Notes under the pieces: model-generated | Seen by the model: the letters and a program-made list of their open reading frames with translations, nothing else | The model's database searches: none | What the model was told of the DNA's origin: nothing | Program-made: the position numbers and the translations under genes | Assembly: GCF_016026235.1 (NCBI RefSeq) | Contig: NZ_CP065613.1 | From: Escherichia coli | GTDB taxonomy: Bacteria; Pseudomonadota; Gammaproteobacteria; Enterobacterales; Enterobacteriaceae | Reading direction: 5' to 3' (one strand) | DNA length: 64,000 nucleotides | Shown here: positions 18,003-63,088 of the stretch, one piece after another | Position numbering within the stretch: the stretch's first letter is position 1 | How the letters are laid out: every line of letters begins with the position of its first letter

Positions 18003-18734
18003 TCAGGCTGTTACCAAAGAAGTTGCAACCTGGCGCTCATCAGAAATAATGTGCGTTACCTCATCCAGATGCCCGATGCGGGCTTCCCCTGAACGATTAA
18101 ATTTACTTTTATCAATCAATAACAACGATTGCGCGGCACGTTTTAATAGCATCGATTTGTAATCAGCGTTGATCGCATTGGAGTCCCACAGTGCGCCGCT
18201 GCTATCGATCCCTTCACAAGAAAAAATAAACAGATCGATTTCCAGCGATTTAAGTTGGGAAATCAGCGAGGGATTGACGTAACAGCCATATTTGCGCTCA
18301 AGTGTGCCGCCGGAACTGATCAGTTGAATGCGTTCGCGTTTACCGAGTTCATGGCAAATCGGATGGCTATTGGTGAAGACCTGAATGTTGATGTCAGGCA
18401 ACTGGCGTGCCAGATACCAGCAAGTTGAACTGGCGTCTAAGGCTATCACCATCCCTTCTTCAATCCACGCGAGCGCCTCGCGCGCGATATCTGCTTTATG
18501 CGCATAATGGCTTTTCAGCCTGATGTGAAAGGGAGCGCCACTGTCTTGATTTTGACGGTGGATATATTTAGCGCGTCCATGATTGCGCAGAATTTTACCC
18601 TGCGTCTGTAATTCATTGAGATCGCGACGAATGGTTTCTTTACTGACCTTTAGCTGTTCAGAGAGAGCTTCCGTGGTCAGGCTGGTATGGTTCAGCAGCA
18701 GGTCGACTATCGCTTGCTGGCGTGCCGCTTTCAT
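18003..18734 (-). CDS. fucR: L-fucose operon activator (DeoR family)
   Basis: 243 aa from ATG 18734 (MKAARQQAIVDLL...); the track ORF adds 3 aa. Confidence 0.9.
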   Translation of the reverse strand: MKAARQQAIVDLLLNHTSLTTEALSEQLKVSKETIRRDLNELQTQGKILRNHGRAKYIHRQNQDSGAPFHIRLKSHYAHKADIAREALAWIEEGMVIALDASSTCWYLARQLPDINIQVFTNSHPICHELGKRERIQLISSGGTLERKYGCYVNPSLISQLKSLEIDLFIFSCEGIDSSGALWDSNAINADYKSMLLKRAAQSLLLIDKSKFNRSGEARIGHLDEVTHIISDERQVATSLVTA

Positions 18735-19215: not shown

Positions 19216-20664
19216 TCACACTTCCTCTATAAATTCAGGTTCAGTTTGCGGGTAGAAATAACGGTACTGATAATGAATCTGTGCGCGGGCTTCTTCCGGG
19301 CTGTTAAATTCCCCTACGCCATACCAACCGAACAGCGCAGCTCCTGCGACGGTCGTTTCGGCGTCGTCGAGAACTTTTACCGGAATATCAAGCATATTGG
19401 CTTTAATCTGATTCCACAATGTGTTGCGACTTCCTCCACCGACTAACAATAATTCAGAGGCCTTAAAGTGCCCGATTTTTTCCAGCATCTGTAGATTGCG
19501 CTGTAATTGCGCAGTTAACCCTTCCAGCGCCGCGCGATAGAAATGCCCCCGCGTGGTATTAAGCGTCACTCCTTGCCAGCCAGCGTTCTGACACGACAAT
19601 AAATCACACTGCATTTTTACGCCATCCGCGCCAGGCGCGATCAGACGAGCTTCTTCAATCAACATTTGCCAGGGTGTTTCAGCCGTCCAGAACAGTTTTC
19701 TCACCCATTCCAGCACGCCGGATGCCAGCCATTGCATACCTGGGTTATACAACCCTGCCTGGCTATCCAGTTCGCAGGTGGAACCGGCGTACTGACTTAA
19801 CAGCGAAGTATCAACCTGGGCGCTACGGACCATTAAAATTTCCCATGTACCGGAAGAGAGCACGGGTTCATTTTGGTCGGCACCAGCGCCAAAAAGGGCG
19901 AACTGGGTATCGTGACCTGCGGAAATCACCGGTATGCCAACGGGTAAGCCGAGCATTGCTGCGGCGCTGTTCTGTAGCGTACCAATCTGTTCACCCGCTT
20001 CCACCAGACGAGGGAAGAGTCGGCGTGGAATACCGGTGGCTTGTAAAATTTGCGGACTGAAATCGCGTTGCTGGATATCCAGCATCTGGCTGGTTCCGGC
20101 CATCGTGATATCAGTAGTGAATTCGCCGGTTAAACGGTGGTTAATCAGCGACGAAATAAAGAGCCAGGCGTGCGCGCGTTCCAGCAGTTGTGGATGATTT
20201 TCTTTCAACCACACCAACTTATATAACGTATTGAAACTAAAGGCTCCGACGCCAGAAATAGCCTGCAACCGCTGTGCGGAGATCAACTGTTCAATATTGT
20301 CCATAACCGCTGCTGTTCGCGGACATTTCCAGCTAATGATCGGATAGAGCAGATTGCCTTGCTTATCTACCAGAGCGCCATCCACACCAAAGGTGGTGAC
20401 GGCGATACCGCGGATGTGGCATTCAGTCAGTTCACTATTGATTTGCCGACAGCAATCAGCAAAGCGTTGCAAAATGGCGTCTAAAGACCACTGGTGCCAG
20501 GTGTTGTTTTCCATCGCGATATCGCTGGCATTAGGCGTTGAGGCGCGGGCAACAATTTTTCCCTGCCGATTAACCGCGATGGCCCTGACATTGGTCGCGC
20601 CACAGTCGAGTACCAGGATAACTTCTTGTTTCATAATCGCTCCTGCAATATAGCCGGATAACAT
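19216..20664 (-). CDS. fucK: L-fuculokinase
   Basis: FGGY kinase; ORF 482 aa from 20664, alternative start [15 protein letters not shown] at 20634 (472 aa). Confidence 0.9.
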
Positions 20665-20742: not shown

Positions 20743-22518
20743 TTAACGCTTGTACAACGGACCGTAGTTCTGGCAAGCGCGGTAATCCTGGCCTTCAATA
20801 TCCATGCCGTGCGCAGCCCAGGCAGAAGGACGATACACTTTGGTCTCTTCAACGTTGTGCATACATACCGGGATACGCAGCATGGAGGCGAGAGTGATAA
20901 AGTCAGCGCCAACGTGGCCGATGGTCAGAACCCCATGGTTAGCGCCCCAGTTCGCCATTACCGAGTACACATCCGTAAACGGCCCTTTACCGGTGAGGCG
21001 CGGTGCAAACCAGGTGGTTGGCCAGGTTGAGTTGGTGCGTTTGTTGAGGATGTCATGCACATCCTTCGGCAATTCCACGCTCCAGCCTTCCGCGATTTGC
21101 AGTACCGGTCCCAGGCCTTTGATGATGTTGACACGAGTCATGGTGAACGGGACGCCGCCTTCGGTAAGGAAGCGGGAAGAGTAACCGCCGCCACGGAAGT
21201 ATTCGTGGATCGCCGGGCACCATTCGGTAGCGGCGAGGCAAGCGTCAGCCTCTTGCTGAGAGATTTCCCAGTGCGGCTTCATCGTCGGGTTACCTTCGCT
21301 GTCGCGTTGTTTACAGGAACCGTCCAGCGCAGCAGAACCTGAGTTGATCAAATGGATGATGCCGTGTTCTGCCAGTCCATCGAGTTTATGCCCCGTTACA
21401 CGCTCAATTGCTTCTGGTGACCAGTAGGTACGCACATCGGCAAATACCTGAGCGGTGCCGGTGAGCTGGTGACCCATTAGCATTGCCACGCCGTTAAGAC
21501 TGTCGTTTTCGGTCGCCACGACAAAGGGTTCGCGCACGCCATTCCAGTCAAATGAACTGTTGAGGATCGCTTCGGCGGTGTCACCATTGGGATATTGATC
21601 GGTCCAGTGACGTTGCCCCTGGAAGCCCGCAGCGATGGCGTTGTAGCCAAGTGATTCTTCCACGCGACCAATATCGGCCAGTTTGCTGTTGCCTTGCATC
21701 ATGTCGCGGATACACATCGCCATCAGTAAACTTTCGCGCAGAACTGCGCGACTTTGCTCGGCATTACGTTGATACTGTTTGTTATTTTCATCTTCGCCAT
21801 AGCGGAAGTTTTTATCAGCCCAGGCCAGTGCCATTTCCAGTTCGGCTTCGTCGTAAATCTTCTGATCGATACGGCGACGCAGTTCGGTCATATCCACCGC
21901 CTGGACTTTCATTCCCAGCCAGGATTCAAAGAAGTTGTGATCAACAATAGAACCGGCGATACCCATCGAAACGCCGCCCAGCGACAGATAGCTTTTACCT
22001 TTCATGCTGGCGACGGCCAAACCGGCGCGGGCAAAGCGCAGCAGTTTTTCTTCAACATCGGCAGGAATCGATGTGTCATCGGCATCCTGAACGTCATGAC
22101 CGTAAATGGAGAATGCTGGGATGCCTTTCTGGCTGTGAGCTGCCAGAGCCGCTGCCAGGTAAACAGCGCCGGGACGTTCAGTGCCGTTAAAGCCCCAAAT
22201 GGCTTTCGGGCGGGTTGGATCCATGTCGATGGTTTCACTGCCATAGCACCAGCAAGGCGTTACCGTAATGGTGAGGCCTACATTCTGACTGCTGAATTTT
22301 TCTTCGCAAGCAGCGGCTTCAGCCATACCCGCGATACAGGTATCGGAAATGACACACTCGACGGCAGCTCCGCAGGCATGGCGCAGTTTCTCGGTCAGCA
22401 GTGCGGCCGTAGCTTTCGCCATATTCATTGTTTGTTCTTCAAGCGACTCACGAACACCCATGCGACGACCGTCAATAACCGGGCGGATACCAATTTTCGG
22501 TAAGCTGATTTTTTTCAT
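20743..22518 (-). CDS. fucI: L-fucose isomerase
   Basis: 591 aa; matches recalled FucI. Confidence 0.95.
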
Positions 22519-22550
22519 TACAGATTCCTCACTTTATTCGGAAAATATGT

Positions 22551-23867
22551 TCAGTTAGTTGCCGTTTGAGAACGGAAACGGGCAAAGATAAAGATGACCG
22601 CGAAGCAGAGTGCGGGGATCAGTTCAGCAGTGGGGATGTTGCCCGCCGCGTCACTGACAAAACCCATGACCGGAGTGACAATACCGCCGCCAATGATGGT
22701 CATAACGATGAAGGACGAACCGTATTTGGTGTCCTGGCCGAGATTCTTAATGCCCAGCGAGAAGATTGTTGGGTACTGAATCGACATAAAGGCGCTGCAT
22801 AAAGTCAGGGCTATTAAGCCCACATGACCGCCAGCGAAGGCTGAGATCAGGCACAGTGCCATAGCGATTAATGCGTAGGCGGCCAGGACTTTGTGTGGTG
22901 CGAAGCGACTGATGAGCCAGGTACCGGTGAAACGACCAATAAAGAAGCACACCATGGTTCCGGTTAAATAGTTAGCGGCAAAGCCTGCAGTCATACCTGG
23001 AATTTCTTCTACAGCGTAGCGAATCAAATAGCTCCAGCAGGCCGTTTGTGCGCCAACGTAGCAGAATTGCGCTAATACTGCCCAGCGCCAGTGGCGAATA
23101 CGCGCCAGGCGAGAAAGCGATGCGGAGAACGATCCTTGTTTGGCGTCACTGTGATTATCACTCTGCAATGCCGGGAATTTCGTCAGCATGATCAGCAGGG
23201 CGACCAGTAACACGATAGCCACGATGATCATATAAGGTGTCTGTACCGATAATACCAGGCTGTGTTTATACGCACTCAATTGCTCTGGAGACATTTTATC
23301 GAGAACGTCTTGCGATTGATGTGGCACGTTAGACAAAATAAGACTTTGCCCAAAGACAACCGCGATAATTGCGCCAAACGAGTTAAATGTTTGCGCAAGA
23401 TTTAAGCGGAAGTGACCACTGCTTTCCGGCCCTAATACCGTAACAAAAGGGTTTGCGGCAGTTTCCAGACAACCTAATCCGGCTGCAATAATAAATAGGC
23501 CAACTAAAAATAAGGTGTAGTTCATTATTTCTGCAGCGGGCCAGAATAATGCAGCGCCCAAGGCATATAAAAATAATCCGGTAATAATCCCTGCTTTATA
23601 ACTGAGTTTTTTCATCAATATCCCAGCAGGGATTGGGATAATGAAATAACCAAAGTAAAAGGCCGATTGGATCAGGCCAGCCTGGAAATTTGTCAGCGTA
23701 AAAGCCTGCTGGAATTGAGGTAATAAAATGTCGTTAAGGTTATTGGCTACCGCCCAAAGAAAAAACAGTGAGCACAGCAGCGCGAATGGAATAATGTAAC
23801 TTCTGCTTTGCCCTGCATCTTTATCTACCGCACGGTAACTCTGCGTTTGTATTGATGTGTTTCCCAT
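22551..23867 (-). CDS. fucP: L-fucose:H+ symporter (MFS)
   Basis: 438 aa, multi-helix membrane protein in the conserved fucPIKUR order. Confidence 0.95.
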   Translation of the reverse strand: MGNTSIQTQSYRAVDKDAGQSRSYIIPFALLCSLFFLWAVANNLNDILLPQFQQAFTLTNFQAGLIQSAFYFGYFIIPIPAGILMKKLSYKAGIITGLFLYALGAALFWPAAEIMNYTLFLVGLFIIAAGLGCLETAANPFVTVLGPESSGHFRLNLAQTFNSFGAIIAVVFGQSLILSNVPHQSQDVLDKMSPEQLSAYKHSLVLSVQTPYMIIVAIVLLVALLIMLTKFPALQSDNHSDAKQGSFSASLSRLARIRHWRWAVLAQFCYVGAQTACWSYLIRYAVEEIPGMTAGFAANYLTGTMVCFFIGRFTGTWLISRFAPHKVLAAYALIAMALCLISAFAGGHVGLIALTLCSAFMSIQYPTIFSLGIKNLGQDTKYGSSFIVMTIIGGGIVTPVMGFVSDAAGNIPTAELIPALCFAVIFIFARFRSQTATN

Positions 23868-24413
23868 AGCATCCTCTTAGGTTCAGAAGCTTAAGCACGT
23901 AATCGGTTATGTTTTCAAAAGTGCAAAACCAGCGAGTTCGGGCTTCATATCAGTGAATATTTGCCTGTCTGAAATGAACTCATGGATTCATTTTCAAATA
24001 AAAAACGCTCTGTAATATGACGGCGGTCACACTTATTAGCTGGAAGGTGACTTTATGTGACTACCATCACTTTAATAATCGAAATTTCATGCCCGTTTCA
24101 GAAAATAAATCATAAAAAACACAAACCAGATGACCGTATTAATTGTTTATGCCGAAAACGGGCATTCCTGGCTTGAGTGAATAGAAAAATGACCGTTTTG
24201 ATAAATATTTTTAAGAGCGGTCATTTTTAATGGGGTTATAAAAAGAGAACTTGCAGTTATTTACTGTGATTAGTTGAACCAGGTCACAAAATATAAGCTT
24301 GTGAATTTCTTTCTGGTTAATCAGGAAGAAGATGGTGGGTAATTAAACGGCTAATTCAATAGTGTGAAAGGAACAACATTATTGCCCTGTTTTGAATCAG
24401 AGAGAGGTAGCTA
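23868..24413. promoter_or_regulatory. Divergent fucPIKUR / fucAO control region
   Basis: 546 bp AT-rich intergenic region between divergent operons; contains the inverted repeat AAAATGACCG ... CGGTCATTTT (about 24187-24229) and a related half-site near 24130. Confidence 0.6.
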
Positions 24414-25061
24414 ATGGAACGAAATAAACTTGCTCGTCAGATTATTGACACTTGCCTGGAAATGACCCGCCTGGGACTGAACCAGGGGACAGCGGGGAAC
24501 GTCAGTGTACGTTATCAGGATGGGATGCTGATTACGCCTACAGGCATTCCATATGAAAAACTGACGGAGTCGCATATTGTCTTTATTGATGGCAACGGTA
24601 AACATGAGGAAGGAAAGCTCCCCTCAAGCGAATGGCGTTTCCATATGGCGGCCTATCAAAGCAGACCGGATGCCAACGCGGTTGTTCACAATCATGCCGT
24701 TCATTGCACGGCAGTTTCCATTCTTAACCGATCGATCCCCGCTATTCACTACATGATTGCGGCGGCTGGCGGTAATTCTATTCCTTGCGCGCCTTATGCG
24801 ACCTTTGGAACACGTGAACTTTCTGAACATGTTGCGCAGGCTCTCAAAAATCGTAAGGCAACTTTGTTACAACATCATGGGCTTATCGCTTGTGAGGTGA
24901 ATCTGGAAAAAGCGTTATGGCTGGCGCATGAAGTTGAAGTGCTGGCGCAACTTTACCTGACGACCCTGGCGATTACGGACCCGGTGCCAGTGCTGAGCGA
25001 TGAAGAGATTGCCGTAGTGCTGGAGAAATTCAAAACCTATGGGTTACGAATTGAAGAGTAA
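24414..25061 (+). CDS. fucA: L-fuculose-1-phosphate aldolase
   Basis: 215 aa; class II aldolase; matches recalled FucA. Confidence 0.95.
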   Translation: MERNKLARQIIDTCLEMTRLGLNQGTAGNVSVRYQDGMLITPTGIPYEKLTESHIVFIDGNGKHEEGKLPSSEWRFHMAAYQSRPDANAVVHNHAVHCTAVSILNRSIPAIHYMIAAAGGNSIPCAPYATFGTRELSEHVAQALKNRKATLLQHHGLIACEVNLEKALWLAHEVEVLAQLYLTTLAITDPVPVLSDEEIAVVLEKFKTYGLRIEE

Positions 25062-59928: not shown

Positions 59929-61983
59929 TTACTTGCTGCTAGCTATTGCGGGGGCGCTATCAGCAGTACGAATTTTTTGGAACAGCAAAAAGGTAAAGAC
60001 GATCACCATGCCGAGCGCCGCCATGCCCATCAGCCACATATTGCGGTAGGCTTCTGCTGCGGGCAGGGTGTCTTGCCAGTGGCCGATAATTGGGTAAACG
60101 AAGACATCCGGCAGGAATCCTATCACCGAACAAATACCTACCGTGGTGCCCATAATGTAAGACGGTGTTCTCGCTTCGCCGGGGCAGGCCCAGTACAGTC
60201 CACGTGAGGCGTAGCAGGTGAATCCCAGCAGTAAAATCAGGCCAATCCCCATTGCGACCGATTGCGGGTTAGAGTTGGTAACAAGCAGGGCAGTCAGTGC
60301 CAGCAGGCCGATGATGGAAAGGATTTGGATCACGCGGGTAGGGGATTTCACTTTGCTGTAGGTGGTGATTATGCCGCCAAGTGGGCCGCACAGCGCGCGG
60401 AATATTTTGTTGATCACAATCCCCATGTAGCTCGCCGCCACCAGCGACATGCCGTACATTTCGGTCAGATAGTTGGTGGAGGTAATGACTCCAACTTATT
60501 GATAGTGTTTTATGTTCAGATAATGCCCGATGACTTTGTCATGCAGCTCCACCGATTTTGAGAACGACAGCGACTTCCGTCCCAGCCGTGCCAGGTGCTG
60601 CCTCAGATTCAGGTTATGCCGCTCAATTCGCTGCGTATATCGCTTGCTGATTACGTGCAGCTTTCCCTTCAGGCGGGATTCATACAGCGGCCAGCCATCC
60701 GTCATCCATATCACCACGTCAAAGGGTGACAGCAGGCTCATAAGACGCCCCAGCGTCGCCATAGTGCGTTCACCGAATACGTGCGCAACAACCGTCTTCC
60801 GGAGACTGTCATACGCGTAAAACAGCCAGCGCTGGCGCGATTTAGCCCCGACATAGCCCCACTGTTCGTCCATTTCCGCGCAGACGATGACGTCACTGCC
60901 CGGCTGTATGCGCGAGGTTACCGACTGCGGCCTGAGTTTTTTAAGTGACGTAAAATCGTGTTGAGGCCAACGCCCATAATGCGGGCAGTTGCCCGGCATC
61001 CAACGCCATTCATGGCCATATCAATGATTTTCTGGTGCGTACCGGGTTGAGAAGCGGTGTAAGTGAACTGCAGTTGCCATGTTTTACGGCAGTGAGAGCA
61101 GAGATAGCGCTGATGTCCGGCGGTGCTTTTGCCGTTACGCACCACCCCGTCAGTAGCTGAACAGGAGGGACAGCTGATAGAAACAGAAGCCACTGGAGCA
61201 CCTCAAAAACACCATCATACACTAAATCAGTAAGTTGGCAGCATCACCGTTGGTGGAGTAACTCAGAATGGCGTAGATGGTGAAGACACCAAAAATCACC
61301 ATGCTGCAATACCAGGTGGTGCTGATGCGCAAAACGGCCAGGATGTCGCTAAGCTGGAATGATTGTTTTTCTTCGTTATTGGCACTGCGCAGGTTGTTGT
61401 TATCGCTAACAAAAAACCAGCACAGAATCCCCAACAAGATGTAAACCACACTATAGATGATAATGACCGTTTTCAGGCTGGTGCTGTCATCCGGTGCAAA
61501 GCGAGAAAAAACCCACATGGTAAACACTGCCAGCGACATTACACCGACGCCGCGCAGCCCTTCCATCCAGCCCATAATTTTCCCTTGCTCGCTATGATCG
61601 CCAAGCAACGAGGCGGCTTTAATCGACACCGACCACAGCATTAAAATCGTCGTTATCGCAAATGCGACCTGAATACAGAGCATTACCCACAGCGGTGGAT
61701 ACGTTGCCATTAACAGACCCAGTAATCCGGTAATGATCATCGCGGAAGTAATCATTTTGCGATGTGAGAATTTATCGGCAATAACGCCGCTGGGGGCATA
61801 AAGAATAATAGCTGCAATACCAAAGGTACTCATTATTAAACCTATCTCGGTATTGCTGAATCCCATAAATTTCGCCATGGGAATTTGATAAATATAACGT
61901 AAATAAGCCAGGTCGAAACTAACGCCGCCGCTAAAACTAATTATCGCGAGGGTTATCCAACGGCGATATGAGTTGTGTTGCAT
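59929..61983 (-). pseudogene. yqcE: MFS transporter YqcE-like, disrupted by IS1
   Basis: N-terminal part 61249-61983 and C-terminal part 59929-60480 are in the same reading frame across a 768-bp IS1 plus 9-bp duplication; together ~425 aa. Confidence 0.8.
60481..61248 (-). mobile_element. IS1: IS1 insertion sequence (insA 60918-61193, insB 60496-60999)
   Basis: 768 bp; ends GGTAATGACTCCAACTTATTGAT (plus strand) and reverse complement of GGTGATGCTGCCAACTTACTGAT; InsA ([23 protein letters not shown]...) and InsB ORFs; 9-bp target duplication GTTGGTGGA at 60472-60480 and 61249-61257. Confidence 0.95.
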
Positions 61984-62234
61984 ATCGTATTCCCATTTGT
62001 AATAGACAAAAAAAAGAGAAAAGTAAGCCGCCCTTTCAGGTGGATTACTTTTCTCAGGTCTCTAGTAATTGAAATAATAAATAACATGGAAAGCAGAGGT
62101 GTTGTGTGAGAGTAATCACGCTTCTGCTTTTTAAAACTATTTGATAATGCGAATATCACACTGTGATTACGATCACATTAGCAGTTATGTCCTTATGCTA
62201 AAAATTATCTCCAGTTACCAGAGATAATGAGAAA

Positions 62235-62278: not shown

Positions 62279-62302
62279 GCCTTACGGAAATTGGAGCTAA
62301 CT

Positions 62303-63088
62303 ATGTCAATCGAATCTCTCAATGCGTTCTCAATGGATTTTTTCTCCCTGAAAGGTAAAACCGCAATTGTTACCGGCGGGAATAGCGGTTTAGGCCAGGC
62401 ATTTGCCATGGCGTTGGCCAAAGCAGGCGCAAATGTCTTTATTCCAAGTTTTGTCAAAGATAACGGCGAAACAAAGGAAATGATTGAAAATCAGGGTGTT
62501 GAGGTGGACTTCATGCAGGTGGATATCACCGCAGAAGGCGCGCCGCAGAAGATTATCGCTGCCTGCTGTGAGCGTTTCGGTACAGTTGATATTCTGGTTA
62601 ACAATGCCGGTATTTGTAAGCTGAATAAGGTGCTGGACTTCGGTCGTGCCGACTGGGATCCAATGATTGATGTGAACCTGACCGCCGCATTCGAGTTAAG
62701 CTACGAAGCGGCAAAAATTATGATCCCGCAGAAAAGCGGTAAAATCATTAATATCTGTTCATTGTTCTCTTACTTAGGTGGACAATGGTCACCTGCATAT
62801 TCTGCCACTAAACATGCTCTTGCCGGATTCACCAAAGCTTATTGTGATGAACTAGGTCAATATAATATTCAGGTAAATGGTATTGCCCCTGGCTATTATG
62901 CAACAGATATTACGCTGGCGACACGCAGTAATCCAGAAACCAATCAGCGCGTTCTTGATCATATTCCAGCAAACCGTTGGGGCGATACTCAGGATTTAAT
63001 GGGCGCTGCCGTATTCCTCGCAAGTCAGGCATCGAATTATGTCAACGGGCATTTATTAGTGGTCGATGGCGGTTATTTAGTGCGCTAA
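62303..63088 (+). CDS. ygcW: Short-chain dehydrogenase/reductase YgcW
   Basis: 261 aa from ATG 62303 (GGAG SD); TGGNSGLGQA Rossmann motif and YSATK catalytic motif. Confidence 0.85.
   Translation: MSIESLNAFSMDFFSLKGKTAIVTGGNSGLGQAFAMALAKAGANVFIPSFVKDNGETKEMIENQGVEVDFMQVDITAEGAPQKIIAACCERFGTVDILVNNAGICKLNKVLDFGRADWDPMIDVNLTAAFELSYEAAKIMIPQKSGKIINICSLFSYLGGQWSPAYSATKHALAGFTKAYCDELGQYNIQVNGIAPGYYATDITLATRSNPETNQRVLDHIPANRWGDTQDLMGAAVFLASQASNYVNGHLLVVDGGYLVR

Follow-up and report, generated by a model that had tools for sequence, protein, structure and literature searches.

The window analyzed here, that is, the whole stretch of 64,000 nucleotides of Escherichia coli DNA, carries the L-fucose regulon of this species, in which fucPIKUR is read leftward and fucAO rightward. 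Both fucU and fucR lie to the left of fucK, fucI and fucP, and the genes used as landmarks are the following.

18003-18734, minus strand: fucR, a DeoR-family regulator and the presumed binder of the boxes described below (from the annotation of an identical locus)
19216-20664, minus strand: fucK
20743-22518, minus strand: fucI
22551-23867, minus strand: fucP
24414-25061, plus strand: fucA
25086-26237, plus strand: fucO

The product of fucR contains the Pfam domains HTH_DeoR (6.6e-23) and DeoRC (1.6e-45); a phmmer comparison of FucR with the PDB sequences returned no match, and hence no solved structure detectable by sequence. The divergent control region between fucP and fucA spans 546 bp (23868-24413), is found in 5024 of the 5426 complete E. 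coli genomes and displays 99% identity with that of K-12 MG1655, from which it differs by 9 substitutions.

Induction of the regulon has been shown by others to depend on FucR and CRP. The start of fucAO was placed by 5'RACE 63 nt 5' of the fucA ATG (PMC11011485), which corresponds to the C at position 24351 of the window, and the CRP sites validated at fucAO are OCrp2 and OCrp3 (PMC11011485). Mapped onto the window, the published elements are these.

24013-24034: OCrp0, CRP site serving the leftward fucPIK promoter, with 1 mismatch to the CRP core (PMC11011485, PMC11894529)
24053-24074: OCrp1, CRP site serving the leftward fucPIK promoter, with 1 mismatch to the CRP core (PMC11011485, PMC11894529)
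24270-24291, plus strand: OCrp2, CRP site essential for PfucAO (PMC11011485), with 2 mismatches to TGTGA-N6-TCACA
24341-24346, plus strand: -10 element of PfucAO, AATTAA (PMC11011485)
24360-24381: OCrp3 (PMC11011485)

A scan of the intergenic region for consensus promoters found nothing, an outcome to be expected for activator-dependent promoters. At positions 24040-24043 the window reads CTGG where K-12 has CTAG, the sequence which is the target of IS5 in propanediol-positive mutants (PMC11894529); that insertion hotspot is altered in this strain. Elsewhere in the window, a perfect CRP core palindrome, TGTGATTACGATCACA, lies at 62162-62177 and a second site with 1 mismatch at 62105-62120, both within the divergent intergenic region between a yqcE-like ORF (61222-61983, minus strand) and an ORF at 62291-63088 (plus strand), which may be the SDR-type gene annotated in matching records.

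The inverted repeat and its probable FucR boxes

The sequence AAAATGACCG at 24186-24195 (plus strand) recurs as its exact inverted copy, CGGTCATTTT, at 24218-24227, and the 10-mer has no perfect match in the 64-kb window other than these two arms. The repeat sits in the fucPIK/fucAO control region, upstream of the FucR-dependent promoter and with fucR nearby. A preliminary description of this DNA had reported such a repeat with arms about 21 bp apart; the repeat is as described, while the gap between the 10-nt arms has to be corrected to 22 bp (24196-24217). The perfect arms extend to 11 nt (24185-24195 and 24218-24228), and 24185-24228 forms an imperfect palindrome with 25-nt arms that are 84% complementary. 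When the 546-bp region was shuffled preserving dinucleotides, 10 of 1000 shuffles contained a perfect inverted repeat with arms of 11 nt or more and a gap of 3 to 40.

The heptamer ATGACCG occurs again at 24130-24136, in agreement with the related half-site that the same description had placed near 24130. Counting both strands, the hexamer TGMCCG/CGGKCA is present six times in the 546-bp region (shuffle mean 0.18, maximum 2), the sixth copy falling within the CRP site OCrp0. The arrangement TGMCCG-N22-CGGKCA, allowing up to 1 mismatch, is found exactly twice in 64 kb, at 24131-24164 and at 24190-24223.

The recognition sequence of FucR was taken from PMC11011485, which quotes the consensus that Baumgart et al. 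2021 obtained in a high-throughput in vitro binding assay and gives it as G(A)C(T)C(G)A(C)A(G)A(TC)A(T)CGGT(G)CAT(A)T(CG); expressed in IUPAC letters this is RYSMRHWCGGKCAWB, with the core CGG[T/G]CA. Independently of the window, a 16-nt position weight matrix (PWM) was trained on the orthologous boxes of non-Escherichia genomes only (consensus AAAATGACCGTTTTAA, 16.9 bits), and 29 Enterobacteriaceae fucP-fucA intergenic regions were aligned with MAFFT, conservation being expressed as the fraction of the majority base. The alignment contains five islands of conservation, which coincide with five boxes, A to E, whose cores lie at 24089(+), 24130(+), 24159(-), 24189(+) and 24218(-) and which share the consensus AAATGMCCGTTTT. 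The majority-base fractions of the islands are 0.97, 0.91, 0.95, 0.94 and 0.83, respectively, and the linkers C-D and E-OCrp2 have fractions of 0.46-0.48. Together with an additional element, A', and the spacer of the repeat, the boxes are as follows.

24089-24098, plus strand: box A, ATGCCCGTTT, adjoining the fucPIK-side CRP sites; conservation 0.97
24114-24125: element A', AAAAAACACAAA here and in Escherichia, AAAACCCACAG in most genera; conservation 0.85
24130-24139, plus strand: box B, ATGACCGTAT, left arm of a second, candidate dyad; PWM score 17.3 bits
24152-24166, minus strand: box C, the published OFucR2 and right arm of the second, candidate dyad; PWM score 19.0 bits
24186-24198, plus strand: box D, AAAATGACCGTTT, left arm of the repeat and predicted FucR box; core TGACCG at 24190-24195
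24196-24217: spacer between the core hexamers of D and E, 22 bp, AT-rich and weakly conserved (0.68)
24211-24227, minus strand: box E, right arm of the repeat, containing OFucR3 (TTAAGAGCGGTCATT, 24211-24225); core CGGTCA at 24218-24223

The left arm agrees with the published consensus at all 15 of 15 positions (24188-24202, minus strand, ATCAAAACGGTCATT) and is one of three zero-mismatch matches in the 64 kb. It is also the best match to the PWM in the whole window, reaching 22.2 bits when the maximum of 20 shuffles was 18.2, and its conservation of 0.94 was obtained over 26 rows representing more than 12 genera. The right arm, which coincides with OFucR3, scores 16.8 bits and is conserved across genera; OFucR3 itself agrees with the published consensus at 12 of 15 positions. 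These results support the earlier proposal that the arms are operator sites for FucR.

The half-site at 24130 is box B, which differs from the published consensus by 1 mismatch (24129-24143, minus strand), as does box C (24152-24166, plus strand). OFucR2 was published as CCGAAAACGGTCATT (PMC11011485) and the window reads CGGGCATT at 24152-24166; in terms of the box, the sequence is CCGAAAACGGGCATT in the window and CGGTCATT in K-12, the difference falling at the degenerate K position. Judged by its sequence and spacing, the 24130 half-site thus appears to belong, as the left arm, to a second dyad built in the same way, with OFucR2 as its right arm. The 3' flank of box B (24137-24148, ATTTAATTtAT) has a conservation of 0.86 across genera, above that of the other spacers.

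Box A (ATGCCCGTTT) forms a 10/10 inverted repeat with AAACGGGCAT at 24156-24165. A' occupies the position where a dyad partner of box A would be expected, exactly 22 bp beyond its core on the 3' side. In A', CCCACA replaces CGGKCA and CGG is missing; this element may be a variant FucR half-site or the site of another factor.

Candidates outside the control region were set aside. Five ATGACCG heptamers in the coding sequence of fucI and fucP (21885-22830) score from -2 to 5 bits and vary at synonymous sites, so this cluster is a coding or chance effect and is not operator-like. Isolated PWM matches at 61460-61475 (20.2 bits), 63252-63267 (14.6), 63040-63055 (12.8) and 19465-19480 (16.0) are all within ORFs (the yqcE-like MFS gene, neighbouring ORFs and fucK), have no dyad partner and are probably due to chance.

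Conservation and spacing of the boxes across Enterobacterales

We collected 80 fucA loci, taking one genome per species, of which 46 have fucP divergently upstream. In the intergenic regions of these 46, PWM matches of at least 11 bits occur at 8.37/kb, as compared with 0.054/kb in flanking DNA. Hafnia, Yersinia, Photorhabdus, Rahnella and Edwardsiella, all outside the training set, have three to five boxes each. The computations show a match to the FucR motif in both the left arm and the 24130 box, and conservation of all the boxes across genera.

The boxes follow the orientation pattern ++-+- in 34 loci, and the distances between them were compared in this set. The gap between the cores of B and C is 22 bp in 33 loci and 23 bp in the remaining one, that between D and E is 22 bp in 26 loci and 23 bp in 8, and A and B are 35 or 36 bp apart in 34/34, while the C-D gap varies from 18 to 43 bp. 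Spacing within the dyads is therefore invariant (22/23 bp) and the linker between the dyads is variable; the fixed B-C and D-E gaps identify the converging pairs TGMCCG-N22-CGGKCA as the fixed units. Indels are essentially absent between the fucP promoter and box C, a stretch that includes OCrp0, OCrp1, A and B. On the other side, every one of the 29 aligned sequences has 59 or 60 bp between the core of box E and the TCACA of OCrp2, separated by a linker that is not conserved (0.48). By these fixed and variable distances, the region divides into two modules, one on the fucPIK side and one on the fucAO side (D/E-OCrp2-promoter), with the variable linker between them.

Loci having fucAO but no divergent fucP were also informative. 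Serratia sp. DD3 (L061 2811-2844) retains one complete dyad, TGCCCG-N22-CGGGCA, located ~160-190 bp upstream of fucA. No FucR box was found within 700 bp in the fucA-fucO pairs without upstream fucP of Citrobacter spp. (loci L033, L035, L037, L039, L040, L045, L048, L057-L059 and L064) and of Escherichia whittamii (locus L027). FucA identity in these boxless pairs is 82-87%; they are presumably under other regulation, and the fucAO-only Citrobacter loci constitute a natural negative control.

Function of the repeat at the fucAO promoter

Two FucR sites, OFucR2 and OFucR3, have been validated experimentally (Zhang et al. 2024, PMC11011485). Mutation of OFucR3 reduced fucose-induced PfucAO activity more than 50-fold and mutation of OFucR2 cost ~30% of the induction, basal activity being unaltered in both cases (PMC11011485). 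According to the model proposed in that work, effector-bound FucR aids the occupancy of OCrp2 by CRP, which then recruits RNA polymerase. A later article counts four FucR operators, the putative OR0 and OR1 for fucPIK, and OR2 and OR3 for fucAO (Zhang et al. 2025, PMC11894529), although the text of the article does not give the sequences of OR0 and OR1. The words "inverted", "palindrome" and "dimer" do not occur in PMC11011485 or PMC11894529, and neither the left arm (24186-24198) nor the dyad geometry is named in their text. Among the papers examined, none reports an EMSA or footprint with FucR for either arm, nor a point mutation in the left arm or in box B; for direct binding they offer the high-throughput assay cited in PMC11011485.

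The truncations reported in PMC11011485 can be placed on the box map. PAO.V5 (-270), which lacks A and B, has full PfucAO activity (PMC11011485). PAO.V6 begins at -206 (primer AAATATTTTTAAGAGCGGTCATT, Supplementary Table S2, PMC11011485), a start that falls in the D-E spacer, so that boxes A to D are gone and the right arm is kept; it retains ~70% of the induced activity (PMC11011485), a loss no greater than that caused by mutating OFucR2 alone. V7 (-166), lacking E, is nearly inactive (PMC11011485). Since PAO.V6 keeps ~70% without the left arm, this arm is dispensable for most of the activation in that reporter, which was placed at the lac locus and assayed under full induction.

Taken together, we consider it highly probable that the inverted repeat serves fucAO as its promoter-proximal FucR operator, made up of two converging boxes. 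The boxes are roughly 10-13 bp long and the center of the D-E dyad lies at about -144.5 from the fucAO start. In the mechanism we propose, FucR loaded with fuculose-1-phosphate would occupy the boxes, each being contacted by one wHTH of an oligomeric, DeoR-type FucR; FucR at the right arm, held at a fixed 59-60 bp upstream of OCrp2, would help CRP-cAMP to bind, and CRP at OCrp2 would then recruit RNA polymerase. The left arm would be bound by FucR jointly with the right arm and may contribute affinity or cooperativity, or have a role at fucPIK. The fixed D-E spacing and the retention of both arms in a fucAO-only locus suggest that selection maintains the left arm along with the right one, probably for affinity or cooperativity when FucR or the inducer is limiting.

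A different account of the arms is that the right one alone works at fucAO and the left one is an independent FucR box for fucPIK, which we regard as rather unlikely. If so, the look of an inverted repeat would be a by-product of two opposed sets of single boxes: A, B and D share one orientation relative to fucP, and C and E share theirs relative to fucA, as the ++-+- pattern of the 34 loci would have it; the activity held by the -206 truncation agrees with it, as does the division of the operators in PMC11894529, where fucPIK and fucAO receive two each, those of fucPIK being putative. The distances are harder to reconcile with opposed single boxes, since the D-E gap is fixed at 22/23 bp, whereas D stands at distances from boxes A-C, and so from the fucPIK promoter, that differ by as much as 25 bp, and, there being no indels from the fucP promoter to box C, the variable linker parts D from the fucPIK module to which it would have to belong. 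Moreover, the fucAO locus without a divergent fucP keeps both arms. Opposed sets of single boxes are thus a possible explanation that fits the spacing data poorly. Counting against the dyad, in turn, the core centers of D and E are 28 bp apart, which is a non-integral number of helical turns.

That the repeat acts as a nucleic-acid structure, be it a cruciform, a transcript hairpin or a terminator, has a negligible probability in our estimation. The single-stranded DNA of 24180-24233 does fold at -10 kcal/mol with a z-score of -5.3, a result which is trivial for any inverted repeat; the variable core position agrees between the arms in just 16 of 29 species for D/E and 13 of 29 for B/C, with no covariation, and box A is the same box in unpaired form. 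Furthermore, since both the fucAO start (24351) and the fucPIK-side CRP sites have the repeat upstream of them, the native promoters do not transcribe it. With no terminator-like site and no Rfam family near threshold, the hairpin or terminator was rejected. It is also very unlikely that the boxes are sites of another factor, whether CRP, SrsR or some nucleoid protein that binds the AT-rich spacer, and resemble the FucR motif by coincidence. The spacer and its flanks are indeed AT-rich, and published work calls the locus transcriptionally repressed; however, the conserved positions are those of the GC-containing TGMCCG core and not of the AT-rich spacer, and the published SrsR site is in the fucP 5'UTR. 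As for CRP, the four published sites all lie away from the repeat, and a search of 24072-24264 for TGTGA-N6-TCACA with up to 3 mismatches gave no match, excluding the repeat as a CRP site and leaving the earlier proposal of FucR operators uncontradicted. In addition, mutation of the right-arm core abolishes the fucose-specific induction and leaves the basal, CRP-dependent activity unchanged.

Going one step further than the operator itself, the spacing can be read to mean that FucR recognizes wide-spaced dyads, TGMCCG-N22-CGGKCA, and not isolated 15-mers, and that the region is organized in two rigid nucleoprotein modules separated by a linker of variable length, a proposal to which we give an even chance. 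The first module would comprise the fucP promoter, OCrp0, OCrp1, A/A' and B/C, and the second D/E, OCrp2 and the fucA promoter. Were this correct, the left arm would count as a fifth true FucR box, matching better than any other and previously undescribed, which could load the right arm cooperatively at low inducer or bridge to the B/C dyad, coupling the divergent promoters.

Comparison with described FucR sites and other DeoR-family regulators

In its essentials the feature is already known, since the right arm is the published OFucR3, and the locus, the regulator and the core CGG[T/G]CA are identical to those of the work on OFucR2 and OFucR3 (OR2 and OR3). What differs is the arrangement: those papers treat single 15-mers on one strand and count four operators, whereas we find converging pairs, and five conserved boxes plus a variant sixth. 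The motif of Baumgart et al. 2021, in the form in which it is quoted, is the reverse complement of the orthologue-derived box AAAATGACCGTTTTAA and describes a single box, being silent on pairing and on the 22-bp spacing. The dyad geometry and a fifth, consensus-perfect box are therefore a modest new detail. The invariant 22-bp spacer, the fifth box and the variable linker could refine the current model, which limits FucR to helping CRP bind; our understanding of fucose regulation is unchanged by the dyad detail, which opens no long-standing question. The FucR operators of a textbook sugar regulon were, nevertheless, located correctly from the sequence alone.

Several copies of a short asymmetric box, in either orientation, lie within this one control region, and a comparable arrangement is known for FruR, a DeoR-family regulator of Bacillota whose operators repeat the 10-bp TGAWWGWTTT four to eight times, in both orientations (PMC11906611). 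Like FucR, FruR combines HTH_DeoR and DeoRC and has a sugar phosphate as effector (PMC11906611). The boxes of both regulators are short, asymmetric, multi-copy and found in both orientations; TGMCCGTTTT shares the frame TGA..G.TTT with TGAWWGWTTT, the central positions being CC in FucR and WW in FruR. By analogy, FucR would behave as a typical multi-box DeoR-family regulator. The two systems differ in that FruR boxes are packed over the core promoter, whereas FucR boxes are 130-260 bp upstream of the start, are arranged in pairs with a 22-bp spacer and would act through CRP.

Closer at hand, E. coli DeoR and GlpR are DeoR-family proteins which also combine several operators per control region, CRP and oligomeric binding; both are repressors, and their operators are compact palindromes of 16-20 bp. 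FucR, in contrast, is an activator, and its half-sites stand 28 bp apart from center to center.
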